Assembly (NCBI GenBank): GCA_029855935.1
Contig: JAGSHN010000012.1
Span: 272,869 to 336,868, forward strand
Length of the DNA stretch: 64,000 nucleotides
From: Candidatus Thorarchaeota archaeon
GTDB lineage: Archaea; Asgardarchaeota; Thorarchaeia; Thorarchaeales; Thorarchaeaceae
Direction: 5' to 3'
Positions 25,543 through 49,826 of this stretch are shown piece by piece. The position numbers and the translations under genes were made by a program. The notes beneath the pieces were generated by a model that was not told where the DNA came from, did no database searches, and was given only the letters and a program-made list of their open reading frames with translations. Position 1 is the first letter of the stretch. Each line of letters begins with the position of its first letter.

Positions 25543-25931
25543 CGAGCCTGCCCGCTGTCTGCTCGTTCGCGTCCAGTCTGTGAACGGCCGTCGGCATCCT
25601 CTACCATCGTGTCAGACGGTATCTGTCTTATTGCCACTGGGTGTCTATTCGATATGACATTGTCCTCCTAGACTGATGGCCGAAAGTAAGCAGGCGTGGT
25701 TCGCCTAGTCCCTCTGGGTATACAGGCTGGCGACAGACCCCCAGTACTCAACGGTCCTCGGCCCAGCAAGAATCGGTCTTCTGATGCATCTGGCCTCAAA
25801 AGTGTGGCCCACCAGAGTGCCATACCGCAGGACAAGTTTCTTATTACCCATTCGCACAACACCACAGGACTAGAACGGATGACTGGTAAGCAGTTCTTCC
25901 CGTGCTCACAAATCCGTCTGGTGGTCACGCA

Positions 25932-26498
25932 ATGGTTACGGCACTATTCAAGGTCGTTCTGATGGGCGATGGCTCAGTCGGCAAGACAAGTCTTCGCAGG
26001 GCCTACATGGGCGAGGGATTCCGTGCCTCCTATATGATCACAATCGGGGCAGACTTTGCTGTCAAGAAGATGGTGCTCGAGGGCGGTCACGAGGTCAGCA
26101 TTCAGATCTGGGACCTCGCCGGTCAGGAACACTTCAAGAACGTCCGTTCTACCTTCTACAAGGGCGCCCAGGGGGCCCTTGCTGTCTATTCAACTGTCGA
26201 GCGCTCCTCATTTGAGAACTTGCCCAACTGGATTCAGGAGTGCTGGCATAATGCCGGAAAGAAGATTCCCATTGTTGTCATCGGCAACAAGATTGACCTG
26301 AGACAACAGTTCGAGGGCAATCCTGCCATGCGGCACAACATCGTGACCACGGAGGAGGGTCGAAGGCTCGCAGAGGAGCTGGCCAAACAGGGAGTCCATA
26401 CGTCATTTCTGGAGACATCGGCCAAGACTGGCGAGAACGTCGAGGCAGCATTCCTTGAGCTTGCAATAAAGATTCTTGAGGCTGGTGGGTTGGGATAG
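25932..26498 (+). CDS. Ras-superfamily small GTPase (Rab/Ras-like)
   Basis: ORF 25902..26498; likely start MVTALFKVVLMGDG. G1 GDGSVGKTS, switch I/RabF-like TIGADF, switch II WDLAGQE, G4 GNKIDL, G5 ETSAK. No C-terminal prenylation Cys. Confidence 0.8.
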   Translation: MVTALFKVVLMGDGSVGKTSLRRAYMGEGFRASYMITIGADFAVKKMVLEGGHEVSIQIWDLAGQEHFKNVRSTFYKGAQGALAVYSTVERSSFENLPNWIQECWHNAGKKIPIVVIGNKIDLRQQFEGNPAMRHNIVTTEEGRRLAEELAKQGVHTSFLETSAKTGENVEAAFLELAIKILEAGGLG

Positions 26499-26598
26499 AG
26501 GTCTGTCGCCAACAGATTTGCTTGTTCATCTTGCGCCTCTTTTTTCACAACACTTTTAGCGGTCCCGCCGCGCTTGACAGCCATCATAGAGTGACCGG

Positions 26599-27738
26599 AT
26601 GCGACATCTGATGAGTACAGAGGACCTGTCACTATTCCTCAGACCAAAGACGTTGAAGGCTCCGGCAGAACACGGCTCAGAGATCACCCGCAGGCTTGCC
26701 ATAAACAGGGTTGGACGGATGTACGCAGCTGCAATGCAAGACCGCACAATCCGTCTCTTTGATGTTCGGAACGGCGAGGAGGTGCAGGTCTTTGAGGATA
26801 ACTTTCTCTGCACGAGTATCGCATTCAGTCCACATGGTGATATCATTGCCTCTGGCGGTGTCGACCGCGTGATCAAGCTGTGGGACATCAGAACAGGAGA
26901 GCATCTTGCCACTCTTGAGGGTCACAGCTATCCGGTCTTGAGCCTCTCGTTCTCTCCCGATGGTGACAGACTCGTCTCAGGCGGTGGCGATGCCACTCTG
27001 ATGATATGGGATATTGGCAATCGCTCTCAGATCCGACAGCTGAAGGGTCACTCACTCTACGTCGTCACCTGTCAATGGGACCCCAACGGCGGGCGCATAG
27101 TGTCGGGCAGCGTGGACTCCTTCATCGGTGTGTGGGATCCCGATTCGGGCAAGCGTCTTGCTTGGCTACAGGAACATCACACTGCAGTGCACGCCGTCCG
27201 CTTCACGAATGACGGTCAGACGCTTGCGTCTGGCTCATCCGATCAGACAATAAAGATCTGGGACGCCTCGGTGCCGACGCTGAGGCTGAAACAGACGCTC
27301 CGGCGGCACTCTGCCGAGGTACGCTGTCTTGCCTTTTCATCCGATGGCCGCTATCTTGCGTCCGGGTCAAGTGACAGGGAGCTCTATGTCTGGCTCACAG
27401 ATGGGTACGTCAAAGCAGGCGAGGGTTCCACGCTCAGCGAGATTGATGGCATTGAGTGGCTTCCTGAGAGGTCGGCATTTCTCACCGCGGATGGCTCAGG
27501 TGCAGTCATCCGCTGGGAGGTAGAGGATCTCGAAACGGTTCTTGCACCCTTCAAGGCGCTGTTGTCTGAAATCGAGGCCGACACAACGCACTCCCGGCGC
27601 GAGGAGCTAATTCAGAAGTTCGAGACCCTGAAGTCCCAGTACGATCCTGAAGTGCTGCGTGACAAGAGGGTGTTCTATGCTGTCTGGCAATGCAAGAGAG
27701 GTCTTGGACTGCTGAAGGGCACTCCGGCGAGACAGTGA
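26599..27738 (+). CDS. WD40-repeat beta-propeller protein
   Basis: 379 aa with about seven repeats ending in ...WD: ASGGVDRVIKLWD, VSGGGDATLMIWD, VSGSVDSFIGVWD, ASGSSDQTIKIWD, ASGSSDRELYVW. Confidence 0.8.
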   Translation: MRHLMSTEDLSLFLRPKTLKAPAEHGSEITRRLAINRVGRMYAAAMQDRTIRLFDVRNGEEVQVFEDNFLCTSIAFSPHGDIIASGGVDRVIKLWDIRTGEHLATLEGHSYPVLSLSFSPDGDRLVSGGGDATLMIWDIGNRSQIRQLKGHSLYVVTCQWDPNGGRIVSGSVDSFIGVWDPDSGKRLAWLQEHHTAVHAVRFTNDGQTLASGSSDQTIKIWDASVPTLRLKQTLRRHSAEVRCLAFSSDGRYLASGSSDRELYVWLTDGYVKAGEGSTLSEIDGIEWLPERSAFLTADGSGAVIRWEVEDLETVLAPFKALLSEIEADTTHSRREELIQKFETLKSQYDPEVLRDKRVFYAVWQCKRGLGLLKGTPARQ

Positions 27739-27757
27739 GTTGTTCATACCCTTCGCA

Positions 27758-28435
27758 CTAGAAACTCCTGCCGGAACGCTTCTTGGTCGCGTTGTCTATC
27801 ATGACCTCACACAGCTCAAGGAAGGCCCGTTCGACGTTCTCGCCTGTTAGCGCACTGGACTCGACGTAGAGTGACCCAATCTTGTCAGCGTAGGCCTTGC
27901 CCTCCTCCGTAGAGACCACTCGAATGTCCTCAAGGTCTATCTTGTTGGCAACGACGATCATTGGAATCACTCGGCCTGTGCTGTTGAATGCCTCCTCTCT
28001 CCAGCGGTCAAGATTGAGAAACGTGCGCCTTCTTGTGACATCATAGACCAGGAGGCCTCCCCGTGCGCCCCTATAGAATGACTGCCTGACGACCTCAAAC
28101 CTCTGCTGGCCTGCGAGATCCCATACCTGCAGTGTGACCTTTGCATCTCGACTGGGCACCTGAACTCTTTTGATTGCAAAGTCACTTCCGATGGTCCGCT
28201 TGTAGTCAGACTCGAAATGGTCTTGGGTGAACCTGACCGTCAGCGCAGTCTTTCCCACGGCGCCATCACCGAGCATGACCACTTTGAACCTGTACTCTGC
28301 AGGCACAGGGCTCACATCCTCGTATCGCCATTGTGCTGGCGCCTTAAAACACTTGCCGACTCGTATACCCTCCAATCCGCCTCTGACGGACGGATTTCGG
28401 CGGTTGTGACGTAAGTGTAGGATCGTCTTCCTCAT
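27758..28435 (-). CDS. Ras-superfamily small GTPase (Rab/Ras-like), second copy
   Basis: G1 GDGAVGKTA, TIGSDF, switch II WDLAGQQ, G4 ANKIDL, G5 ESSAL. The ORF's ATG gives a 55-aa N-terminal extension. An in-frame GTG at about 28315 (VSPVPAEYRFKVVMLGDG) would give a canonical-length GTPase. Confidence 0.75.
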   Translation of the reverse strand: MRKTILHLRHNRRNPSVRGGLEGIRVGKCFKAPAQWRYEDVSPVPAEYRFKVVMLGDGAVGKTALTVRFTQDHFESDYKRTIGSDFAIKRVQVPSRDAKVTLQVWDLAGQQRFEVVRQSFYRGARGGLLVYDVTRRRTFLNLDRWREEAFNSTGRVIPMIVVANKIDLEDIRVVSTEEGKAYADKIGSLYVESSALTGENVERAFLELCEVMIDNATKKRSGRSF

Positions 28436-28522
28436 TATGATTTAGTGATCAGGTCCCCAAAATGCACACATCATTTAATAAGAGAATGCGCAATTCGAGC
28501 TTGATTTCCGCCGAGATGATTC

Positions 28523-28903
28523 GTGATGAAGCGCCCTGACTACGCGGAGCTTGCAAGGATACTTGAAGAGATGAACGAGGAGGGTGGGTACTATGCATCC
28601 ATCCTTGCACGCGACGACGGGCTACTGATAGCCTCTGCTGCTAACGCATCGACAAACCGCGAGATAGTCGCCGCGATGGCAGGCTATGTTGCATCGACTG
28701 TCGAGAGGATGCGCAATGAGCTCCATCTCGGAGAGCTGACCGAGATATCGGTCCGGTGCACCGAGGGAAAGGCTGTATTCCGTAAGATTCTGCGTGGGAA
28801 GGATCAGGCGCTGATACTTGCAGCAGTGATGCCGCGTCACATCCGGTATCACTCCCGTGCTCTCGGAAAGGGAGCAACACGGATACGAAAACTGCTTAAG
28901 TGA
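28523..28903 (+). CDS. Roadblock/LC7 (MglB-like) domain protein
   Basis: 126 aa; size and alternating hydrophobic pattern (GGYYASILARDDGLLIAS...ILAAVM) fit the Roadblock/LC7 alpha-beta fold. Immediately downstream of the small GTPase. Confidence 0.55.
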   Translation: MMKRPDYAELARILEEMNEEGGYYASILARDDGLLIASAANASTNREIVAAMAGYVASTVERMRNELHLGELTEISVRCTEGKAVFRKILRGKDQALILAAVMPRHIRYHSRALGKGATRIRKLLK

Positions 28904-36571: not shown

Positions 36572-37195
36572 TCATACCATTGATGCGCGTTCCCAGTCAT
36601 GCTCGTAGATGTGCGCATTGACAGACAGAGTGGTCACTGTTCCCCTGTCGAGACCCGTTTCTGTTGCAACGCGGCTGAGGAGTTCTCCGAGAGCAAAGAC
36701 GTTTGCTGGCCAGGCCCCGTACATGTCGTTTGACCTAATCATCACACTGAGGTCCACGGCACCATCCCGGACCATGAAGACGAAGTGGTTCAGGCAAGGC
36801 ACCTCGTCGTTTACAGTGTCCCGCCTTGGATCCCAAGTTGTCGCTACCGCCCTCCTGCTATTGGGACTCTGGCTCAACTTCCGAATGACATAGTCAATCT
36901 GGTCTATTGCCTCTTGCCCCCATGACATAAGTCGTTCCCCGTACGTATAATCGAATCCCATCGGGTTGGGGTCCAGTATCTGTGTTGCATACCGCTCGCG
37001 GAGGACACGCTCGCTAAAGGGGTACCCCTCCGGCACTCGTTCGGTGAAGGGGTCTCTGACACAGACCATCAGGTTGTCGAGCCATCGTGTGAGGAGCCCA
37101 CGTTCGTCAACGCGCTCTCTCCCGTGGCCCATGATGTATCTAACAACTCTTTTCCACCCGTCTGCTGGTGTCGCTGCCCTGATAAAGAACGCCAA
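36572..37195 (-). CDS. thyA: Thymidylate synthase (archaeal short ThyA type)
   Basis: 207 aa; NSRRAVATTWDPRRD, catalytic VPCLNHFVF, SVMIRSNDMYGAWPANVFALGELL, VNAHIYEHD align with ThyA motifs ([56 protein letters not shown]). Confidence 0.75.
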   Translation of the reverse strand: MAFFIRAATPADGWKRVVRYIMGHGRERVDERGLLTRWLDNLMVCVRDPFTERVPEGYPFSERVLRERYATQILDPNPMGFDYTYGERLMSWGQEAIDQIDYVIRKLSQSPNSRRAVATTWDPRRDTVNDEVPCLNHFVFMVRDGAVDLSVMIRSNDMYGAWPANVFALGELLSRVATETGLDRGTVTTLSVNAHIYEHDWERASMV

Positions 37196-37429
37196 GACAT
37201 CATCCCTTCTGTCAGCTGCTCTGTTGGAGTCCAGCCCGGTGGCGCCGCTTGGGGGTTAAATAGTTTGGTCAGACAGTCTAGTGCGGCGGTGCCATTGTCC
37301 TGCGGGTACGAGATGTCTTGCGGTAGGTCGATTGTGCATACTCCTTTGGGACAAGATTTTAATGTCGCGGCTACAAAGTGCATCAGGCCCCTCATTGGGG
37401 CAGGGAAGCGTCCGCCGGGAGAGAGAGCG

Positions 37430-37708
37430 ATGACTACCGTAGTATATGTCTTCACTCAAGAGAATTGCCCAAACTGCCCCGCGGCCAAGCGGGTCGTAAG
37501 GGAGGCACTCGACGGCTCTGGAATCGACGTCGAGTTTGTTGACATTCACAGTATGGATTCCGATCTTGAGTTCCGTCTTCTTGAGGAGCAGGTCTTCATT
37601 GCATCAACGCCGAGCATAGTCCTTGAGAATGACGGCTCTCTCCGCCTCCTGTACAGTGGCGAGGTCCCCACTGTAGAAGACATTCGTTCAATAGTAGTAG
37701 GGGAATGA
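37430..37708 (+). CDS. Glutaredoxin-like protein (NrdH-like), upstream of nrdD
   Basis: About 93 aa from ATG at about 37430: MTTVVYVFTQENCPNCPAAKRV... has a CPxC active site with a thioredoxin-fold pattern. Embedded in the longer ORF 37124..37708. Confidence 0.6.
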   Translation: MTTVVYVFTQENCPNCPAAKRVVREALDGSGIDVEFVDIHSMDSDLEFRLLEEQVFIASTPSIVLENDGSLRLLYSGEVPTVEDIRSIVVGE

Positions 37709-37712
37709 TTCT

Positions 37713-39857
37713 ATGACAGACATTAGAGAGTCTCTGATTAGTGACGCAGACATCTGCGCGAGGGAGAAGAAGCTACCGCACGTTCGAACGACCAAGGGGA
37801 CCCTTGAACCATTCAAGGGCCAACGTATCGTCGACAGCCTTGTTCGGGAGGCTGGACTGAGTGTGGGCGACGCACAGTTCGTTGCGGCAAAGGTAATGGA
37901 CAGGATTGCAGCCTCAGGAATCCGGTTTCTGTCAGGGCCGCTCATTCGTGAGATGTGCAACAGCGTATTGGCCGAGATGGGCTTTGAGAGAGAGCGCATC
38001 CGGTATACCCGCGTTGGTGTGCCGATGTATGATCTTGACCAGCTTATCATGCATCCCAACAGGCATACCTCTAACGCGAACCTGATGAGGAATCCTGAAA
38101 CAATCGCCAAGCTCGTCCATGACCAAGTTATGGAACAGCACACATTCCTGACAATCCCTCCGCATCTTGCCGATGCTCATCTCCGTGGAGACATCTACAT
38201 CAAGGACCGCGAGTACTTCTCCACACGAGACTACTGCGCCACCTGGGACCTCCGCCAAGTCTTTCTGCTCGGAATTGCTCCAGATGGTCTTGGAGGTGTT
38301 CACTCTTCTGCTGCGGGGCCTGCCAAACATCTCCCTGTGGCAATCAATCATGCGGCAATCTGGCTTGCGGCTGCTCAGAGCTCTTTCGCTGGGGGTCAGG
38401 GCTTTTTCTACTTCAACACGTTCATCGCTCCATTCCTTCAGGACAAAAGCTACGACGAGGTCAAGCAATCGGCCCAGCAACTGATATTCACGCTCACCCA
38501 GCAGTACGTTGCCCGTGGTGGTCAGGTAATATTCTCAAGTGTCGACCTGACTCCCGGGATACCCAAGATCATGCGCGATGTCCCGGCGGTTCTCCCGGGC
38601 GGTAGAACGACCTCTCTGACATATGCCGACTTTGAGGAAGAGGCCAACCGCTTCTTCAACGCCTTCATGGAGGTTATGATTGAGGGCGACGCCAAGGGGA
38701 AGGCATTCAACTTTCCGAAGCCAAATGTTGTTCTCAGGAAAGAGTTCATGCGCCCAGAGTACGACGACTCCTGGCACTTGGTCGCCGAGCTCACTGCCAA
38801 GTTCGGCACACCGTACTTCGAGAACTATCTGAACTGGCGCTCGTCCATTGAGGCGGGCTGCAGCAGCTGCTGTTCTCATCTGTGGACAGCAAGCAGCGAG
38901 GAGGAGTTGGAGGAGTTCCTCAGCGGCAACATGGTCTTTGGCGCCTCACAGATGGTGACTCCCAACTTTGGCCGTGCGGCGTGGTTGGGCCGATCAGACG
39001 AGGACCGCTTCTTCGAGAAGCTCGACCACTATCTAGAACTGTCCAAAGAGGTGATTCTGGAGAAGAAGCGTCTGATGGACAAGTTGATTGCGAGTGGTAG
39101 TGTTCCCTTCTACACACAGCCCAAGCCAAATGGTGAACCTCTGATAGATATGAGTCGAAGGGAGTTCTTGATCGGAACAGTCGGCTTTGAGGAGATGGCC
39201 ACAATCCAGACGGGCCACCACCTCCACGAGCGCGAGGGTGCAAGGTTCGGGATCAAGGTACTCAAGTACGTAAGGCAGCGAGCCGACGAGTTCCAAGAGG
39301 AAACGGGCCTCCACTTTGGAGTCACGCGTACGCCCGCAGAGAGTGCTGCGGGGCGTCTGGCTCGAAAGGACTGGAGGGCCTACCCCGGGATTCGAAAATA
39401 CCTCAAGGGAACCGGACCGACTGAGGTCTACTACACCAACAGCACAACGCTTGATGTCGCTGCACCCATCCCGCTCAGCGAACGGATCAAGAAGGAGGGA
39501 ATGTTCCATCCGTACATGGATGGTGGTGCGTTGACCCACATCTACCTTGGCGAGGCAAACCCAGACCCGGATGCCATATGGGAGCTCACCAAGCAGATTG
39601 CAACGAGGACGCTCAATTCATACTGGAGTTTTACGAAGGACATACTCTCGTGCCCGCAGTGCTACTATCAGGCCGGCATTGACTGGAGGACAACCCGCTT
39701 CTCCTCAATTGACCAGCTGGAGCATATCCAGTGTCCACGGTGCGGCTATGTGGGCTGCGAAGTATTCAGCCGAATAACCGGGTATCAACAGGCACTGTCC
39801 CAATGGAATGCTTCAAAGAGGCAGGAGTTCATCGACCGCCACAGGTACGCTCTGTGA
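37713..39857 (+). CDS. nrdD: Anaerobic ribonucleoside-triphosphate reductase (class III RNR)
   Basis: 714 aa; N-terminal ATP-cone, C-terminal Zn ribbon CPQC...CPRCGYVGC and glycyl-radical motif SRITGY. Confidence 0.9.
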   Translation: MTDIRESLISDADICAREKKLPHVRTTKGTLEPFKGQRIVDSLVREAGLSVGDAQFVAAKVMDRIAASGIRFLSGPLIREMCNSVLAEMGFERERIRYTRVGVPMYDLDQLIMHPNRHTSNANLMRNPETIAKLVHDQVMEQHTFLTIPPHLADAHLRGDIYIKDREYFSTRDYCATWDLRQVFLLGIAPDGLGGVHSSAAGPAKHLPVAINHAAIWLAAAQSSFAGGQGFFYFNTFIAPFLQDKSYDEVKQSAQQLIFTLTQQYVARGGQVIFSSVDLTPGIPKIMRDVPAVLPGGRTTSLTYADFEEEANRFFNAFMEVMIEGDAKGKAFNFPKPNVVLRKEFMRPEYDDSWHLVAELTAKFGTPYFENYLNWRSSIEAGCSSCCSHLWTASSEEELEEFLSGNMVFGASQMVTPNFGRAAWLGRSDEDRFFEKLDHYLELSKEVILEKKRLMDKLIASGSVPFYTQPKPNGEPLIDMSRREFLIGTVGFEEMATIQTGHHLHEREGARFGIKVLKYVRQRADEFQEETGLHFGVTRTPAESAAGRLARKDWRAYPGIRKYLKGTGPTEVYYTNSTTLDVAAPIPLSERIKKEGMFHPYMDGGALTHIYLGEANPDPDAIWELTKQIATRTLNSYWSFTKDILSCPQCYYQAGIDWRTTRFSSIDQLEHIQCPRCGYVGCEVFSRITGYQQALSQWNASKRQEFIDRHRYAL

Positions 39858-41615: not shown

Positions 41616-42410
41616 CTACTCTGTCAGCAGGACCACGGCATCGGTGTAGAGGTCATATTCGTCGTCCTCATCTAGGTTGCGGACACACACCTTCTCGACC
41701 TCCCCCTCGCCGCTGACCGACAGGACACGACCCTGAGTTATCACCTTGACGCCGGCCTCTGCCAGTCGTGCTGCCATCTCCTCGTCGACATCAAGCTGCT
41801 CGGCGGGCGTGATTAACACCACTCTGTTGGTCACCGTTGCTAGATCGATTGCGGCCTCGACTGACCGGTCGCCCGTGTAGACCACGAGAGCCCGAAGGTC
41901 CTCGAAGTCCTTCGGACTGCCCAGACTGCGGAAGACGCCCTTGCCAATGTAGTCTTCCAGATTCTCTATCTCGGGAATCTCTATCGCCTCGGTGGCCTCT
42001 GTTGAGCCGGCCTCCTCTGTGTGCTTTCGTTTCTGCATCTCTCGATACTGCTTGATGGCTTCGTGCAGCGCGTCGGCAGCAAGATTGGAACAGTGCATCT
42101 TGATTGGCGGCAGACCATCAAGCTCGCTGGCGACATCTGCTCTCGTCACCTTCATTGCCTCGTCCAGGGTCATTCCCTTGACCAGCTCGGTGGTCATGCT
42201 GCTTGTTGCAATAGCCGAGCCGCAACCGAACGTCCTGAACTTCGCATCGACAATCCGCCCGTCCTCGACCTTGATGTAGACCTCCATCAGGTCACCGCAG
42301 ACAGGGTTCCCGACGCGGCCAACAGCCACGTTCTCGCCCTCCAGTGTGCCTACGTTGCGGGGATTCCTAAAATGGTCCAATACCTTTTCCGAATACTGTG
42401 TTGATTTCAT
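41616..42410 (-). CDS. iscU: IscU/NifU-like Fe-S scaffold fused to about 130-aa C-terminal domain of unknown function
   Basis: N-terminal 125 aa carry the three scaffold Cys motifs (GNPVCGDLM, FGCGSAIATSS, HCSNLAADAL). The C-terminal half (GKGVFRSL...VVLLTE) has no recognised motif. Confidence 0.75.
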   Translation of the reverse strand: MKSTQYSEKVLDHFRNPRNVGTLEGENVAVGRVGNPVCGDLMEVYIKVEDGRIVDAKFRTFGCGSAIATSSMTTELVKGMTLDEAMKVTRADVASELDGLPPIKMHCSNLAADALHEAIKQYREMQKRKHTEEAGSTEATEAIEIPEIENLEDYIGKGVFRSLGSPKDFEDLRALVVYTGDRSVEAAIDLATVTNRVVLITPAEQLDVDEEMAARLAEAGVKVITQGRVLSVSGEGEVEKVCVRNLDEDDEYDLYTDAVVLLTE

Positions 42411-42416
42411 GATCCT

Positions 42417-43589
42417 TCACCTCGTCCTCACCTGATAGAGCGGTGACAGTTCTCTCAGCCTAGCGACGATACCGGGGAGCACCTCGAGGACTCTATCGAT
42501 ATCCTCGTCCTCTGTGAAGCGTCCCGTTGTAAGCTGTAGCGACCCGTGTGCCTCCTCGTGGATCAGCCCTGTCGCTATCAGCGTGTGTGATGGTTCGAGC
42601 GTCTTCGATGTGCAGGCCGACCCTGTGGAGACCGCAATCCCTGCATCCTTGAACGAGAGCAATAGTGACTCTCCCTCGATGCCATCAAATCTGAAGTGAG
42701 CATTGCTTGCCAATCTCTCTGTCGGGTGTCCGTTCAGGTGGCTGTCGGGGACCGTTTCCAGCACCTCCCGTATCAGTCTGTCCCTGTAGCTTCTCAGGCG
42801 CTGCACCTCTGACGGCATCTCTTCTTGCATTATCTCCACCGCTGCACGCATCCCGACAATCGCGGCCACGTTCTCCGACCCCGAGCGCAGGCCTCTCTCC
42901 TGTCCTCCTCCGATGATTATCGGATTGACCCTGTACCTCTTCTGCATATAGAGGACTCCGAGGCCCTTGGGGCCATACACGTCGTTGGAGCTGAGCGACA
43001 TCAGGTTTATTCCATCCCTTCTCACATCGATGTCCACAAGTCCCTCAGCTGCGACGGCATCAGTGTGGAAAGCAATACCGTGCTCGGCCGCCAGCTTGCC
43101 AATCTCCTCGACGGGCTGTATCGTGCCAATCTCGTTGTTTGCATATCCTATCGAGATCAGTATCGTATCGTCCCTGATACGCCTCTCCAGCTTGGATATC
43201 CGGACACGCCCGTACTGGTCCACAGGCACTCTTGAAACCTCGAAACCCTGCGCCATCAGGTACTTGGCGATGTTGATTATTGATATATGCTCGACCTCTG
43301 AGATGATTATGTGGTTTCCCTTTCTCTTGTTCCTCATTGCGTAGCCTATGAGAGCCATGTTGTTCGACTCGGTGGCTCCAGATGTGAAGACTATCTCGTC
43401 GGGGTCGGCGTTGATGAACCTCGCTATGGCACGTCTACTCTCCTCAAGTGCCTCTGTGGCCACATCGCCGACGTGATGCAGTGATGAGGGGTTTCCAAAG
43501 TGCTCTGTGAAATAGGGCAACATAGCCTCTACGACTCTTGGGTCGGTCGGCTTTGCCGAGTGATAGTCGAGATATACCGTCTTCAACCA
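42417..43589 (-). CDS. iscS: IscS/NifS-like class V aminotransferase with PLP-Lys replaced by Asp (likely non-desulfurase scaffold partner)
   Basis: ORF 42417..43694; likely start LKTVYLDYHSAKP at about 43589. FHTDAVAA...NLMSLSSNDVYGPKG aligns with E. coli IscS FHVDATQS...DLMSFSGHKIYGPKG, so HK becomes ND. Active-site loop STGSACTS retained. Confidence 0.85.
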   Translation of the reverse strand, partial: WLKTVYLDYHSAKPTDPRVVEAMLPYFTEHFGNPSSLHHVGDVATEALEESRRAIARFINADPDEIVFTSGATESNNMALIGYAMRNKRKGNHIIISEVEHISIINIAKYLMAQGFEVSRVPVDQYGRVRISKLERRIRDDTILISIGYANNEIGTIQPVEEIGKLAAEHGIAFHTDAVAAEGLVDIDVRRDGINLMSLSSNDVYGPKGLGVLYMQKRYRVNPIIIGGGQERGLRSGSENVAAIVGMRAAVEIMQEEMPSEVQRLRSYRDRLIREVLETVPDSHLNGHPTERLASNAHFRFDGIEGESLLLSFKDAGIAVSTGSACTSKTLEPSHTLIATGLIHEEAHGSLQLTTGRFTEDEDIDRVLEVLPGIVARLRELSPLYQVRTR

Positions 43590-43597
43590 TCTCCCTC

Positions 43598-43954
43598 CTA
43601 GAACCACATTGTAGCGTTCGCATCCAGTACGAGGTCGTTCAGAGTGGCTGCCCCAACAATCTTCAGACCGTCTATCAGCTCCACATCCTTCCACCCGAGC
43701 ATCTGTTTCGACGCCTCACAGACAAATATCTCAATGCCCATGTCCATGCTCTCTGTGATCATATCGTACAGGCTCGGAAAGGAGCCCATCTTTATGGTCC
43801 TTGCTGTCTCAGGCTTCAGGACTCGGAGCGCCTGTCCGAGATAGTATACCTTTGCCTCAATGTTCATGCTCTTCGCGGCCTGTGCCAGGACTAGGGGCGA
43901 GTATTGCCTCTCTGGGTTGTCGCTCGTCTGCACATACAGTATCATATCGCTCAT
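43598..43954 (-). CDS. DsrE/DsrF-like (YchN fold) sulfur-relay family protein
   Basis: 118 aa; size and pattern (ILYVQTSD...VYYLGQA...IFVCEASKQMLG...KIVGAATL) match DsrE/DsrF/DsrH-like proteins. Confidence 0.55.
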   Translation of the reverse strand: MSDMILYVQTSDNPERQYSPLVLAQAAKSMNIEAKVYYLGQALRVLKPETARTIKMGSFPSLYDMITESMDMGIEIFVCEASKQMLGWKDVELIDGLKIVGAATLNDLVLDANATMWF

Positions 43955-43971: not shown

Positions 43972-44220
43972 TCAACTTGTGCGTCTTATCAGGAACCTGT
44001 GGACCCCGTCCTCAAGCCGCTCGTACTTGACCAGCTCGTGGCCTGTACGTTTGACAAACCGTTTCAGGTCCTCTTCGGCGGCGGGGTCGTCGGCAAGCAC
44101 CTCCAGTATCTGTCCGACCTCAATCTCATCAATGGCCTCTCGGGTCAGGAACAGAGGCTGTGGACAGTACAATCCTATGCAGTCGATGGTTTCTACAGGC
44201 TCCTCACTCATGACCATCAC
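43972..44220 (-). CDS. tusA: TusA-like sulfurtransferase
   Basis: 82 aa; IDCIGLYCPQPLFLTREAIDEIEVGQILEVLADDP contains the conserved CPxP motif and fold pattern of TusA/SirA. Confidence 0.7.
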   Translation of the reverse strand: MMVMSEEPVETIDCIGLYCPQPLFLTREAIDEIEVGQILEVLADDPAAEEDLKRFVKRTGHELVKYERLEDGVHRFLIRRTS

Positions 44221-44262: not shown

Positions 44263-46050
44263 CTATCTCTGCCAGCCCTCCTCTTCAAAGTGTTCATCTC
44301 GGCCACCACTCCAATCGCACACTATGTTGCCTTCCTGTGTGATCCTCACAATGATCTCCGGCAGCGGCGGGATGAGGTTCTGACCCACTACCGTACTTTC
44401 TTGGTAGGCCCCTGTCAACAGCACCGCAAGGTGGCCGCCCACGAGGGTCTGTCTATCTGGTATTGGAATCCCCTCGACGACGAGGGGATTGTCATGCGTG
44501 AGCGGTCGCCCATCACCCGTGTAGAGCCTCTCTGAGTGTCGCTTCAGGCTGAAGGCTGAGATCTCGCCATCGGAGTCGCAGGTCAAATCCACAAGTCGGA
44601 TGCTGGTCTGCGGGCGCCTGTCAAGATCTGCCAGCGGGACAATCGGGAAATACTGTCCCACCAACAGATGATCCACAAGGTCACTGAATACGCTGAACTC
44701 GCCGATTGCTATGTAGTCAGGCCGGAGAGGGTCGCTGGTGCAGATGGCACTGAAGAACTCGGGATTGGCGAAAGTCCTCCTGCGTACCTCTCTTGTGGCA
44801 ACCTCGGAGATGTACGCCCAGTCCGCAGAGTCGTCGATGTCGTCTGACTGATTCCACCAGTCCTCGTGAACCGCGCTCTCCCACAGACGAAGGAGCCCGA
44901 CAGGATCTCCCACACTCCTTATTGCGCGAATCAGCTCCCCCGCCCTCTCGCGGGCCGCCTCTGATGGGCTGGTGCCGTCTGTCTTGGGGTAGACGCTCCT
45001 GACCTCGCGAACGGCAACGAGCGTGATACGTGACGGAGCGACAACATAGCGGCCGGCTTCGATGGCAATATCTGGCAGGGAGGTGCTCATACTCTCGCTG
45101 GCCGCCGCATCCAATATTCCTGCTATCACCTCTTGGGCATACCGGGAGGCGGTGTCCTCCTCGCCTGTCGGGTGACGACCCTCATAGTCAATCGGAATGC
45201 CGCCGCCTAGGTCGAGCGTCTCCAGTCCTGGAAGACCCTCCCGCCTGAGCAGTGAGAACATCCTCATTCCGTAGCGGGCGAATTCCCTCATGTCGCCCAC
45301 GTCTGAGATCTGGGAGCCGGGGTGGACGAGAACTCCCGTGACGAGCGCACCCATCCCGTTCTCATCCAGCTTCAGGATTGCATCGCGAACCTCGGACGGT
45401 CCCAGGCCGAACTTGGAGCCAATGCCGGTTGATCTGACCCAGTGACCTCTAATCCTGACCAGAGGTCTGAGCCTAAGCATCAGTCGCAGGCTATCAGGCC
45501 AGTTGCGATGTGCCAGCACGACGTTGACATCGCCGGGTGAGCCTAGTGTGATGACTATCCTGTGTCCGGTTTCTATTAGACGTGCCGTCTCTTGGATGTA
45601 CTCCTCCGTCTTCACCCCGTCGCAGATGATGCTTCTCTCGGCGGCCCCCGGGATGGCGACGGTGCGGACGAGTTCGTTCAGTGATGCGACCTCAAGGCCA
45701 TAGTCTGCATCGGCCTGAAGGACTGCTCCAATGGTCGTCCCGCTCGTGCTGGCCTTGATCGGGTAGAATAGTCGCAGATGGCCAGGATATCTGACCTCCC
45801 TCATCGTCTTGAGGAAGACATTCTTGAGATGGCGGGCGCGCTCCATCACGAGTTGTGGAAGACGAAGAGAGACTGATCCACGGACTTCCGCCGTGTCGAG
45901 AATGTCTTTCAACGCTACTCTCTGCTCACCCACTGTGACGCACAGTCGTCCTCTCTCGTCGATGTCGAAGAACCGAAGGTCTCCTCTTCCTAGTCCGTAT
46001 ACTACCCGTGAGTCCTCGATTGACCACGTGTCTTCAGCCATAGTCCACAC
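44263..46050 (-). CDS. speA: Biosynthetic arginine decarboxylase (SpeA-like, PLP fold type III)
   Basis: 595 aa; N-terminal W-x-x-x-DS-x-x-Y-G segment, PLP-Lys region LFYPIKAS, Gly-rich LDLGGGIPIDY. Confidence 0.75.
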   Translation of the reverse strand: MWTMAEDTWSIEDSRVVYGLGRGDLRFFDIDERGRLCVTVGEQRVALKDILDTAEVRGSVSLRLPQLVMERARHLKNVFLKTMREVRYPGHLRLFYPIKASTSGTTIGAVLQADADYGLEVASLNELVRTVAIPGAAERSIICDGVKTEEYIQETARLIETGHRIVITLGSPGDVNVVLAHRNWPDSLRLMLRLRPLVRIRGHWVRSTGIGSKFGLGPSEVRDAILKLDENGMGALVTGVLVHPGSQISDVGDMREFARYGMRMFSLLRREGLPGLETLDLGGGIPIDYEGRHPTGEEDTASRYAQEVIAGILDAAASESMSTSLPDIAIEAGRYVVAPSRITLVAVREVRSVYPKTDGTSPSEAARERAGELIRAIRSVGDPVGLLRLWESAVHEDWWNQSDDIDDSADWAYISEVATREVRRRTFANPEFFSAICTSDPLRPDYIAIGEFSVFSDLVDHLLVGQYFPIVPLADLDRRPQTSIRLVDLTCDSDGEISAFSLKRHSERLYTGDGRPLTHDNPLVVEGIPIPDRQTLVGGHLAVLLTGAYQESTVVGQNLIPPLPEIIVRITQEGNIVCDWSGGRDEHFEEEGWQR

Positions 46051-46123: not shown

Positions 46124-47200
46124 ATGACGAGAGGCTCTCTCTGCAAGGTTGCCTTTGTCTGGAGCGACCACTTTGAAGAGTTCGACAACGGCCGCAATCA
46201 TCCAGTGAGACAGGGACGTTTCCGTGCAGTCCGCGACTACATAGTATCACAGGGTTTCTACGAGCACGACAATGTCTCGGAGATGAGTCCTGAGCCTCTG
46301 CCAGAGAGCCTTCTTGAGAGAGTTCACACACAGGAGTACATCACACGAATTCGACGGATCTCGGCGACGGGCGAGGGTGATGTCGACATCGACACACCGG
46401 GCTACCGCGGCATCTACGAGACTGCCCTGTGGACCTGCGGAGGAACCATCTCGGGTGTCAAGGCCATTCTCCGCGGAGAGATAGACCACTTCATCTCTCC
46501 TACGGGCGGCTTCCATCATGCCTTTCCCGACAGAGGAGGCGGCTTCTGCGTCTTCAATGACATTGCGGCTGCAGTGCGTCTGCTTCAGGACCGCGGGATC
46601 AAGAGAGTTGCCATAGTGGATCTTGATGTCCATCATGGGAACGGTACGCAGAGCTACTTCCTAGAGTCACCCGATGTGTTGCACATCTCTCTGCACGAGG
46701 ACCCTGAATGGACGTATCCCCATTCCGGCCGTGTGGAGGAGTCCGGGACCGGGAAGGGGTCTGGACTCAGTGTCAATGTCCCCTTGCCGATGGACTCTGG
46801 TGACGACGTGTTTCTGTACTCCTTTCGCGAGATTGTGCCCCCGATTCTCGACTTCTTCAGACCGCAGTTTCTGATTCTTGTACCGGGATTCGACACGCAC
46901 TACCTTGACCCGCTCGCTCATCTAGTCACCACAACACGGACGACCCGAGAGACCACCCTGATGCTGCACGACCAGGCACACAAGCATTGTGACGGTCGTC
47001 TGGGTGTTGTGTCTGGCGGCGGCTACGACCGACAAGCGCTGAGTTGGGGTGTGGCCACTGTGCTCTCGGTTCTGTCCGGCATCCCCTATTCTGCGCCGCC
47101 GGAGAGTCCTCCAATCCAAGACGATTCCGAGACGTGGGAATTGGCCCGTAGGACTGTTCGTGCCGTCCGTGCAAGAGTATTCTCGCAGCTTGGTCTATAG
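46124..47200 (+). CDS. Histone deacetylase-family amidohydrolase (AcuC/acetylpolyamine amidohydrolase-like)
   Basis: 358 aa; GGFHHAFPDRGGGFCVFNDIAAA, DLDVHHGNGTQ, and later GFDTH are the HDAC/arginase-fold metal and active-site motifs. Confidence 0.75.
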   Translation: MTRGSLCKVAFVWSDHFEEFDNGRNHPVRQGRFRAVRDYIVSQGFYEHDNVSEMSPEPLPESLLERVHTQEYITRIRRISATGEGDVDIDTPGYRGIYETALWTCGGTISGVKAILRGEIDHFISPTGGFHHAFPDRGGGFCVFNDIAAAVRLLQDRGIKRVAIVDLDVHHGNGTQSYFLESPDVLHISLHEDPEWTYPHSGRVEESGTGKGSGLSVNVPLPMDSGDDVFLYSFREIVPPILDFFRPQFLILVPGFDTHYLDPLAHLVTTTRTTRETTLMLHDQAHKHCDGRLGVVSGGGYDRQALSWGVATVLSVLSGIPYSAPPESPPIQDDSETWELARRTVRAVRARVFSQLGL

Positions 47201-49130: not shown

Positions 49131-49826
49131 ATGAGAATCAGCTCAATCATTGACATAAGCCTCGTTGATGTGCCCGGTGTGCCCGTCACCGTAATCTTCA
49201 CCGGAGGTTGCAACTTCGACTGTCCGTATTGTCAGAACTCTGCATTGATTCCTCTGGACTCTGGTGAAACGATGAGTCCCTCAGAGGTAGCGCGTCGGGT
49301 CTCGGGGTTTCTCTCCGAGGGGTTTTGTATCACAGGAGGTGAGCCGACAATTCATCGGGACCTCCCTGACCTTCTCAGGGCGCTCAGAGAACTCTCTCCG
49401 AAACACGTTAATCTGAACACGCAGGGGTCGGTGCCGGGTGTGCTCAGAGCCTCCTTGCCCTATCTTGACTCCGTGTGGTTTGACCTGAAGGCACCACCTG
49501 CCCGCTATCGGGAGATCTCACGCACGAAGTCCGACCCATGGCCCCGCGTTCTGAGGAGCTTCAGGATGCTCCGCGACTCGGATGTCCAGCTGTGGCCCAG
49601 AACTACATACGTGGGAGGTCTGATGACCCGCGAGGATCTGCTCGGTATTCTCGATGTTCTCGTAAGCGAGGGCTATGAAGGCCCCTATCACATTCAGAAT
49701 TATGTTCATTCGGACGGTGTCCGGGAGGATGAGGCGCGACGCCTGACGCGACCTGCACGCGAGGACGTTGAGTACGTGGCCAGGACGGCTCCTCCCGAGA
49801 TTAGAGTCCACATTGATTGGCGTTAG
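49131..49826 (+). CDS. nrdG: Anaerobic ribonucleotide reductase activating protein-like radical SAM enzyme (NrdG family)
   Basis: 231 aa; PVTVIFTGGCNFDCPYCQN (CX3CX2C) near the N-terminus, GGEPT, short length typical of glycyl-radical activases. Confidence 0.7.
   Translation: MRISSIIDISLVDVPGVPVTVIFTGGCNFDCPYCQNSALIPLDSGETMSPSEVARRVSGFLSEGFCITGGEPTIHRDLPDLLRALRELSPKHVNLNTQGSVPGVLRASLPYLDSVWFDLKAPPARYREISRTKSDPWPRVLRSFRMLRDSDVQLWPRTTYVGGLMTREDLLGILDVLVSEGYEGPYHIQNYVHSDGVREDEARRLTRPAREDVEYVARTAPPEIRVHIDWR

Follow-up and report, generated by a model that had tools for sequence, protein, structure and literature searches.

What can a protein of the IscS type do when it lacks the lysine that binds pyridoxal 5'-phosphate (PLP)? 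This question is raised by iscS*, a gene on the minus strand (42417..43586) of a 64,000-nucleotide stretch of DNA from a Candidatus Thorarchaeota archaeon (GenBank assembly GCA_029855935.1, contig JAGSHN010000012.1, positions 272,869 to 336,868). We refer to this whole stretch as the window and number all its features from its first letter. The gene starts with TTG and encodes a 389-residue type I (IscS/NifS/MisS-like) protein of the class-V aminotransferase fold without the PLP lysine. Judged by its sequence, the iscS* product (IscS*) is a non-catalytic type I desulfurase paralog and an ortholog-level relative of Archaeoglobus fulgidus IscS2 (AfIscS2 or AfIscS). With some reserve, we consider it probable that this non-catalytic protein holds the scaffold protein IscU, lends it the loop cysteine Cys325, and either takes sulfane sulfur from TusA/DsrE or uses sulfide.

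Active-site residues of IscS*

When IscS* was aligned with Escherichia coli IscS taken from NC_000913, Asn201 and Asp202 (codons at 42981..42986, minus strand; AAC 42986-42984, GAC 42983-42981) came to lie at E. coli His205 and Lys206. At this site, the window protein reads SLSSNDVYGPKG versus SFSGHKIYGPKG in the E. coli enzyme, and the motif LMSLSSNDVYGPKG is present. An earlier inspection of the letters alone (the sequence-only reading) had proposed just this exchange of the PLP lysine for aspartate and of the preceding histidine for asparagine, and the alignment bears it out. The codon numbers 199-200 given there are, however, A. fulgidus numbers, and the window residues are 201 and 202. 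The same reading had stated that the cysteine of the persulfide loop is retained. In fact, the STGSACTS loop can be read directly, and its Cys325 (TGC, 42612..42614, minus strand) aligns with E. coli Cys328 and is equivalent to the cluster-ligating cysteine of AfIscS.

For a census of the active site (E. coli numbering), three sets of proteins were compared, namely 124 window-related Asn-Asp proteins, 120 A. fulgidus-related proteins and 134 Lys-type proteins (133 homologs and the E. coli reference). Here, we found that Lys206 is Asp in 124/124 window-related and 119/120 A. fulgidus-related proteins but Lys in all 134 Lys-type proteins. The neighboring His205 is Asn throughout both Lys-less sets (124/124 and 120/120) and His in 113/134 Lys-type sequences. 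Gln183 is replaced by Ala in 124/124 and 114/120 proteins of the Lys-less sets, respectively, and is conserved in 128/134 Lys-type proteins. At position 354, Arg is carried by 133/134 Lys-type proteins; this residue is Gln in 121/124 window-related proteins and either Leu (93) or Val (27) in the A. fulgidus-related set (n = 120), where Arg was never observed (0/120). The window protein itself has Ala at 183, Asn at 205, Asp at 206 and Gln at 354. It has thereby lost the contacts to PLP O3' (Gln183), to the phosphate (His205) and to the carboxylate of the cysteine substrate, which Arg354 holds. Since the lysine is replaced by aspartate, an internal aldimine is impossible in IscS*, and as far as these residues can tell, four active-site losses rule out the canonical catalytic route.

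His104, Asp180 and Ser203 are 100% conserved in the Lys-less clade, and Thr76 is found in 123/124 window-related and 120/120 A. fulgidus-related proteins. The loop cysteine (E. coli Cys328) is kept in 123/124 and 120/120 proteins of these sets, respectively. These data indicate that the remaining cofactor pocket and the cysteine loop are still under selection, and the invariant His104, Asp180, Thr76 and Ser203 fit the non-covalent pyridoxamine 5'-phosphate (PMP) of AfIscS. PMP-dependent enzymes of fold type I that lack the lysine exist, ColD being an example, and IscS* might still be an enzyme. In this case, it would bind PMP or PLP non-covalently and catalyze a reaction different from cysteine desulfuration, in which the aspartate acts as catalytic or cofactor-pairing residue. 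The near-invariance of the four pocket residues would fit such an activity, as would the fact that the lysine is nearly always replaced by Asp without drift and that PMP is present in AfIscS crystals (PMC8918507). However, published tests found no activity of AfIscS (PMC7585200; PMC8918507), Arg354 is missing as anchor of the carboxylate and no newly conserved residue with a catalytic role can be seen. Moreover, the conserved partners of IscS* described below are sulfur carriers and an Fe-S (iron-sulfur) scaffold and do not form a small-molecule pathway. We consider a retained enzymatic function of this kind quite improbable.

Family placement and phylogeny

The Pfam family Aminotran_5 matches residues 4-366 of the iscS* product at 2e-73, and 59 desulfurases matched it in a PDB search at E < 1e-20. 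The closest solved structure is that of AfIscS2 (4EB5/4EB7/4HVK), for which chain 4EB5_A gave an E-value of 2.4e-146, while active desulfurases matched at 1e-101 or weaker. Global identity of the window protein amounts to 57% with AfIscS2 and 42% with E. coli IscS, and the motif SSNDVYGPKG of the window protein compares with SSNDIYGPKG in A. fulgidus. None of the curated NCBIfam cut-offs for cysteine desulfurase equivalogs was reached by the iscS* product (TIGR03402 NifS, 478.9 vs. 530.75; TIGR02006 IscS, 407.7 vs. 643.2; NF010611, 412.2 vs. 548).

A database search seeded with AfIscS2 yielded 120 proteins, whose sources include Archaeoglobi, Hadarchaeota and Bathyarchaeia. When the 150 best cluster representatives (50% identity) were inspected, the lysine was kept in 133 and absent in 17. 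From these data, we constructed a neighbor-joining tree with the four active-site columns masked, which is a distance tree without support values, and carried out an unrooted best-split test. Every one of the 34 Asn-Asp tips, AfIscS2 and the window protein among them, fell into a single split of this tree, which held in addition 3 other Lys-less tips and zero Lys-type proteins. A midpoint-rooted clade test failed owing to the root position, and the unrooted test was used instead. Taken together, the best structural match (4EB5), the identical Asn-Asp motif and the shared tree split support the comparison with the A. fulgidus Lys-to-Asp IscS that the sequence-only reading had drawn.

Ten further Lys-less cluster representatives (P0147, P0148, P0163, P0165, P0198, P0227, P0232, P0243, P0256, P0270) were scattered among Lys-bearing lineages. 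At the two positions, they carry residue pairs such as His-Thr, His-Met, Gln-Gln, Gln-Gly, Arg-Ser, Gly-Arg, Asn-Gln and Ser-Asp. Their distribution suggests repeated independent loss of catalysis in the IscS family.

Is the Asn-Asp pair of the window protein genuine, or does it reflect a sequencing or assembly error or the decay of a pseudogene? An error at these codons would have undone the sequence-only reading, but all observations point the other way, and no support for an error or a pseudogene was found. The 4,435-nucleotide operon recurs without a single base difference in both an ENA metagenome assembly and the Logan assembly of run SRR13622960, so that three assemblies agree. Conversion of AAC GAC to CAC AAG requires three substitutions (two for GAC to AAG, one for AAC to CAC), and the reading frame is intact. 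Asn-Asp was present in 119/120 of the closest database homologs (74-100% identity), the remaining one carrying Asn-Tyr; the source labels of these 120 proteins are Thor-, Hod-, Hermod-, Odin-, Sif- and Promethearchaeota. Of the 120 relatives retrieved with AfIscS2, 119 again carried Asn-Asp, which gives 238/240 for both homolog sets and many phyla. The remaining protein of this second set carries Asn-Lys and is probably the engineered D199K sequence. With identical independent assemblies, three needed base changes and a clade-wide motif, the error or pseudogene explanation is refuted for all practical purposes.

Genomic context of Lys-less IscS proteins

On the minus strand of the window, the genes are arranged in the order tusA-dsrE-iscS*-iscU fusion with intergenic gaps of 17, 11 and 6 nucleotides. 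For comparison, a one-genome-per-species scan yielded 80 loci, to which four further loci were added, and all of them were searched with the window neighbors. This sample was ranked by similarity to the query, and the denominators given here are loci with at least 800 nucleotides of upstream or at least 900 nucleotides of downstream sequence. TusA was encoded upstream at 30/32 Asn-Asp loci and DsrE at 25/32, whereas each of them was found at 0/36 Lys-type loci. Either carrier was present at 31/32 Asn-Asp versus 0/36 Lys-type loci (Fisher p = 1.5e-18). IscU was encoded downstream at 27/30 Asn-Asp and 34/37 Lys-type loci, but an IscU with an extra domain was observed at 23/30 and 0/37 loci, respectively (Fisher p = 4e-12).

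These counts bear on the source of sulfur. IscS* might be purely structural and free sulfide might be the source, with TusA and DsrE being co-transcribed for buffering or detoxification of sulfane sulfur or for thiolation of tRNA or cofactors. Sulfide has been proposed as source for the AfIscS-IscU complex (PMC8918507), the MIS and the SMS system are both able to use it (PMC13066941; PMC12192291) and one Lys-less locus lacks both carriers. On the other hand, the association of a carrier with 31 of the 32 Lys-less loci and none of the 36 Lys-type loci, which extends over archaea and bacteria, can hardly be accounted for unless the carriers are functionally connected to this IscS type, and the gaps of just 11-17 nucleotides argue in the same direction. 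On balance, we regard a sulfide-only route with unconnected carriers as unlikely, although it should be kept in mind.

A second canonical desulfurase was not detected in the 64-kb window, since tblastn searches with the query and five Lys-type homologs (E <= 1) matched iscS* alone. Similarly, Pfam analysis of the 49 open reading frames of the window revealed no other Aminotran_5 protein, no SufB and no SufC.

The operon varies in composition among the loci. In a metagenome-assembled genome (MAG) of Hadarchaeota, the order is tusA-dsrE-iscS*-iscU with unfused IscU, and the same arrangement, again with unfused IscU, was found on a metagenome contig, the IscS of which is labelled Thaumarchaeota by its source. 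In a Methanobacteriota MAG (CP070732.1, locus L036), the Lys-less IscS shares 54% identity and has a basic C-terminal tail of about 30 residues; a gene for a large surface protein follows. Loci with 63-72% identity carry the depositor labels Zixibacteria, WOR-3, Aminicenantes, Stahlbacteria, Acidobacteriota, Humimicrobiia and Actinomycetota. The full cassette tusA-dsrE-iscS*-iscU fusion was observed at loci L011, L012, L014, L015, L017, L018, L021 and L023-L028, the MAGs of which are labelled Zixibacteria, WOR-3, Aminicenantes, Stahlbacteria, Humimicrobiia and Actinomycetota. Some of the bacterial-labelled cassette contigs are 140-380 kb long (MAG taxonomy as deposited), and this length suggests transfer of the cassette between archaea and bacteria.

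Genes and proteins of the operon

The stop codon of the iscS* reading frame occupies 42417-42419 (minus strand), and TTG at 43586, which is located 11 nucleotides past the dsrE stop, is its sole plausible start. A ribosome-binding site (GGAGGGAG, 43597-43591, minus strand) can be seen directly in the sequence 5 nucleotides before this TTG, and the resulting 389-residue product is identical to the database gene call (P0001). The span 42417-43589 initially assigned to the gene had the correct stop end, but 43589 belongs to an in-frame TGG and the true start lies 3 nucleotides lower. An ATG at 43590 was rejected as start because it is out of frame. A longer reading frame from GTG 43694 (425 residues) was also rejected, because it overlaps dsrE by 97 nucleotides, the homologs comprise 385-392 residues and TTG 43586 corresponds to the database call.

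The dsrE-like gene (43598..43954, minus strand) encodes a sulfur carrier of 118 residues, which matches Pfam DsrE (PF02635) at 1.6e-14. Its closest solved structure is the DsrE3A-type protein SSO1125 (3MC3, 7.7e-12). The sole cysteine, Cys79 (TGT, 43720-43718), aligns with the active-site cysteine of 3MC3 and is kept in 29/29 related loci. The tusA gene (43972..44220, minus strand) encodes a carrier of 79-82 residues, the start being ambiguous (44220, 44217, 44211), and its product matches Pfam TusA (PF01206) at 1.3e-25 and the E. coli TusA structures 1DCJ/3LVJ at about 2e-12. Its sequence DCIGLYCPQP holds Cys14 and Cys19, both of which are kept in 32/32 related loci, and GLYCPQP aligns with GLRCPEP of the E. 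coli protein. Within residues 14-19 (44164-44181, minus strand), the pattern D-C-x-G-L-x-C-P involves an invariant extra cysteine that E. coli TusA does not have, and the resulting C-x4-C pair might bind a metal or else carry a tri- or polysulfide.

The iscU fusion gene (41616..42410, minus strand) encodes 264 residues and starts 6 nucleotides downstream of the iscS* stop. The IscU fusion, which had been noticed next to iscS* before, consists of a NifU_N domain (Pfam, 2.4e-50) and a degenerate NAD(P)H domain (Pyr_redox, 6.8e-5; TRX_reduct, 8e-10). All scaffold ligands are located in the IscU domain (residues 1-130), which carries Cys38, Asp40, Cys63, His106, Cys107 and LPPIK. This domain scored above the cut-off of the scaffold model TIGR03419 and below that of SufU. 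These properties are relevant for another scenario, according to which sulfur is trafficked to a target other than an Fe-S cluster, with IscS* as adaptor and the IscU-like protein as SufU-like sulfur acceptor. A precedent is the E. coli IscS-TusA-TusBCD pathway (TusBCD being DsrEFH homologs), which feeds tRNA thiolation (PMC2854127). However, the intact scaffold signature, the model scores and the lack of a gene for a thiolation enzyme in the operon make this scenario very improbable.

The C-terminal domain of the IscU fusion (residues about 145-264; 41619-41978, minus strand) is of the thioredoxin-reductase NAD(P)H type, but degenerate. An AlphaFold2 model of the fusion protein (predicted local distance difference test score 88.7) was used for Foldseek searches and matched 4EB5_C at 6e-17 and thioredoxin reductase/AhpF at about 1e-10. 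In this model, the C-terminal 120 residues superpose on the NAD(P)H domain found in low-molecular-weight thioredoxin reductase/AhpF with a root-mean-square deviation of 1.7 A. Unlike these enzymes, the window domain lacks a flavin adenine dinucleotide (FAD) domain, a CxxC, GxGxxA and HRR. At the positions of the thioredoxin-reductase motifs CATC, GGGNTA and HRR, it reads RSLG, YTGDRS and TPA. Thus, neither an FAD domain nor a redox CxxC nor an NADPH-binding motif was found in this domain, which retains the NAD(P)H-domain fold alone, and it may be a docking or regulatory module. The fusion (about 259 residues) is kept in more than 100 Asgard proteins and was found only beside Lys-less IscS. In many of its orthologs, the linker carries one conserved cysteine, where the window protein has Glu.

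Comparison with characterized systems

The best characterized relative of IscS* is A. fulgidus IscS2 (AF0564; 4EB5, 4EB7, 4HVK; D199K variant 4R5F), which shares the Asn-Asp pair, Ala at 183, a non-Arg residue at 354 and the cysteine loop. AfIscS has no desulfurase activity, and its own cysteine ligates a [2Fe-2S] cluster on IscU (PMC7585200; PMC8918507). Activity was not rescued by the D199K exchange (PMC8918507; PMC7585200). The wild-type crystal contains non-covalent PMP, and the IscS-IscU complex was modelled with PLP (PMC8918507). The earlier statement that the A. fulgidus protein has no desulfurase activity was therefore correct, but "binds no PLP" was imprecise. The sulfur source of the AfIscS-IscU complex was stated to be an open question, and sulfide was proposed (PMC8918507). 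M. acetivorans (Methanosarcina acetivorans) IscS1 has been reported to lack the lysine as well (PMC7585200).

The locus of A. fulgidus resembles that of the window in that iscU follows immediately downstream and dsrE precedes immediately upstream. The DsrE homolog (42% identity; AE000782.1, locus L084, 5668-5991) is encoded directly upstream of the crystallized IscS2, and this neighbor is not mentioned in the AfIscS papers examined. The dsrE called in A. fulgidus encodes a protein of only 94 residues, with in-frame stops upstream of the aligned region, and may be shortened. Three differences should be pointed out. The A. fulgidus IscU is unfused (153 residues), whereas the window IscU carries a thioredoxin-reductase-like domain. 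The nearest tusA of A. fulgidus is about 6 kb away, whereas the window tusA is part of the operon. Finally, residue 354 is Leu in A. fulgidus IscS2 but Gln in the window protein.

A two-gene iscS-iscU core with neither chaperones nor carrier proteins nearby is a feature that the window shares with the MIS system (MisS-MisU, e.g., M. acetivorans IscS2-IscU2). However, MisS is by definition an active cysteine desulfurase (PMC13066941; PMC12192291), whereas IscS* lacks the catalytic lysine, and the window operon adds TusA and DsrE. With its catalytic residues absent, IscS* would not supply sulfur from cysteine as MisS does.

With E. coli IscS-TusA (3LVJ) and the Tus relay, the window operon shares an IscS-type dimer, a TusA with a CPxP cysteine and a DsrE-family protein, which are encoded together, and the charged residues of the putative docking patch are largely kept. 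In E. coli, sulfur runs from active IscS via TusA to tRNA. In contrast, IscS* is predicted to be unable to generate a persulfide, and therefore any sulfur flow would have to start elsewhere. The pairing of dsrE with tusA and the aligned active-site cysteine are reminiscent of the DsrE3A-TusA carriers of sulfur oxidizers (Metallosphaera cuprina; SSO1125, 3MC3). These carriers are, however, tied to sHdr and lipoate-binding proteins in dissimilatory sulfur oxidation, whereas those of the window are tied to an Fe-S scaffold pair. Moreover, the window DsrE has one cysteine, but DsrE3A carries Cys-X7-Cys.

Proposed mechanism of cluster assembly

The structures of the A. fulgidus proteins suggest the following scheme for the window proteins. 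An IscS* dimer would bind one IscU at each end to form an (IscS*-IscU)2 complex, probably with PMP or PLP held non-covalently as structural ligand, and Cys325 would supply the fourth ligand to the [2Fe-2S] cluster that forms on IscU. The role as scaffold partner that had been predicted for IscS* remains the best inference from homology, given its kinship with AfIscS2 and the additional loss of Gln183 and Arg354.

The sulfur would not come from cysteine. The gene order suggests that sulfane sulfur carried by the co-transcribed DsrE (Cys79) and TusA (Cys19) may be used, and together with the E. coli IscS-TusA structure it points to delivery by DsrE/TusA to Cys325 or to IscU. In the E. coli complex, TusA Cys19 is located about 4 A from IscS Cys328 (PMC2854127). 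TusA might dock on IscS* as in E. coli with the flow reversed (TusA-SSH to Cys325 to IscU), and free sulfide could be a parallel source. According to the sequence-only reading, IscS* is probably not a sulfur donor. This holds for PLP chemistry only. The genes tusA and dsrE directly upstream, which had been overlooked, make a sulfur relay via Cys325 plausible.

The charges of the E. coli TusA patch (Glu49, Asp52, Arg55, Arg220, Arg237) are kept like-charged in at least 87% of the clade, which is above the Lys-bearing sample, although the clade sample is less diverse. This conservation is compatible with docking of TusA, but the statement should not be extended beyond that.

Several observations weigh against a carrier-fed scaffold pair. 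One Bathyarchaeia locus consists of iscS*-iscU alone with neither carrier, the dsrE of A. fulgidus stands without a neighboring tusA, and the Methanobacteriota MAG CP070732.1 (L036, 5249-7224) has tusA-dsrE-iscS* without adjacent iscU. In the presumed docking patch, Trp45 of the E. coli enzyme corresponds to Asp in IscS* and the partner residue Arg31 of TusA is also Asp, and the conservation of this patch was determined in a clade sample of low diversity, which confounds it. The functional steps are all transferred by analogy from A. fulgidus or derived from gene order, the link to TusA/DsrE is one of association and which way the sulfur flows is our guess. An active desulfurase encoded outside the window might also serve the complex. 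Finally, strict conservation of the Asp and of the pocket could mean that a cofactor-dependent activity has been retained.

With these reservations, we still favor a non-catalytic IscS* that holds IscU and lends Cys325. A more specific proposal would be that tusA-dsrE-iscS*-iscU(-X) constitutes a distinct, cysteine-independent route of Fe-S assembly, in which sulfane sulfur passes from TusA/DsrE to the loop cysteine of the dead IscS and from there to IscU. We put this proposal forward tentatively and, for the time being, lean slightly to the skeptical side. The tusA-dsrE-iscS* cassette was not described in the full-text literature searched, which omits most subscription journals, and both DsrE family papers do not discuss IscS.

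Other genes in the window

Just upstream of tusA, a gene for a PLP-dependent protein similar to Orn/Arg decarboxylases was found (44263-46050, minus strand), together with a divergent gene of the histone-deacetylase family (46124-47200, plus strand). A decarboxylase-like gene was again observed upstream of the cassette in loci L008, L010 and L030, which may reflect a polyamine link or coincidence. The region 25902-28903 holds a cluster of eukaryote-like signature genes, namely two for small GTPases of the Ras family and one each for a WD40 propeller and a Roadblock/LC7 protein; genes for a thioredoxin-like protein and for two ATPases similar to KaiC come next. The Ras-family, WD40 and Roadblock genes are as expected of an Asgard archaeon, and labelled relatives with up to 84% identity point to the same assignment. 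Between 15841 and 22990 (plus strand), genes for MTHFR, MtrH, MtrA, MtrH, DUF2114, F420-glutamyl ligase (CofE) and a LarC-type nickel insertion protein form a module for methyltransferase and C1 reactions, which is present here in an organism that is not a methanogen. At 36572-39857, the anaerobic ribonucleotide reductase NrdD adjoins a thioredoxin-like protein and a short thymidylate-synthase-like gene, and a radical-SAM activase-like gene is located at 49131-49826.

Implications for archaeal Fe-S cluster assembly

The lysine-less IscS of A. fulgidus has reportedly been regarded as a structural curiosity since 2012. Our data indicate that Lys-less IscS proteins are no oddity of one organism but form a large conserved clade, which extends over Asgard and other archaea and several bacterial phyla. 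Throughout this clade, four active-site residues are substituted together, and TusA and/or DsrE are near-constant company, with dsrE being present in A. fulgidus too. If the cysteine-independent route exists, it would be a common trait of Asgard archaea, Archaeoglobi and Hadarchaeota that has also been exchanged with anaerobic bacterial phyla. It would further explain where the A. fulgidus (IscS-IscU)2 complex obtains its sulfur, a question that becomes testable at the bench with proteins that have already been crystallized.

All Lys-less IscS proteins are currently annotated as cysteine desulfurase, and Asgard metabolic reconstructions in which they figure as donors of cysteine-derived sulfur are probably wrong. 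A study of 2026 described an Asgard association of eukaryotic NFS1 (PMC12872458). In our searches, the predominant IscS from Asgard MAGs is predicted to be a non-desulfurase, and this bears on how the Asgard-NFS1 association is to be read.

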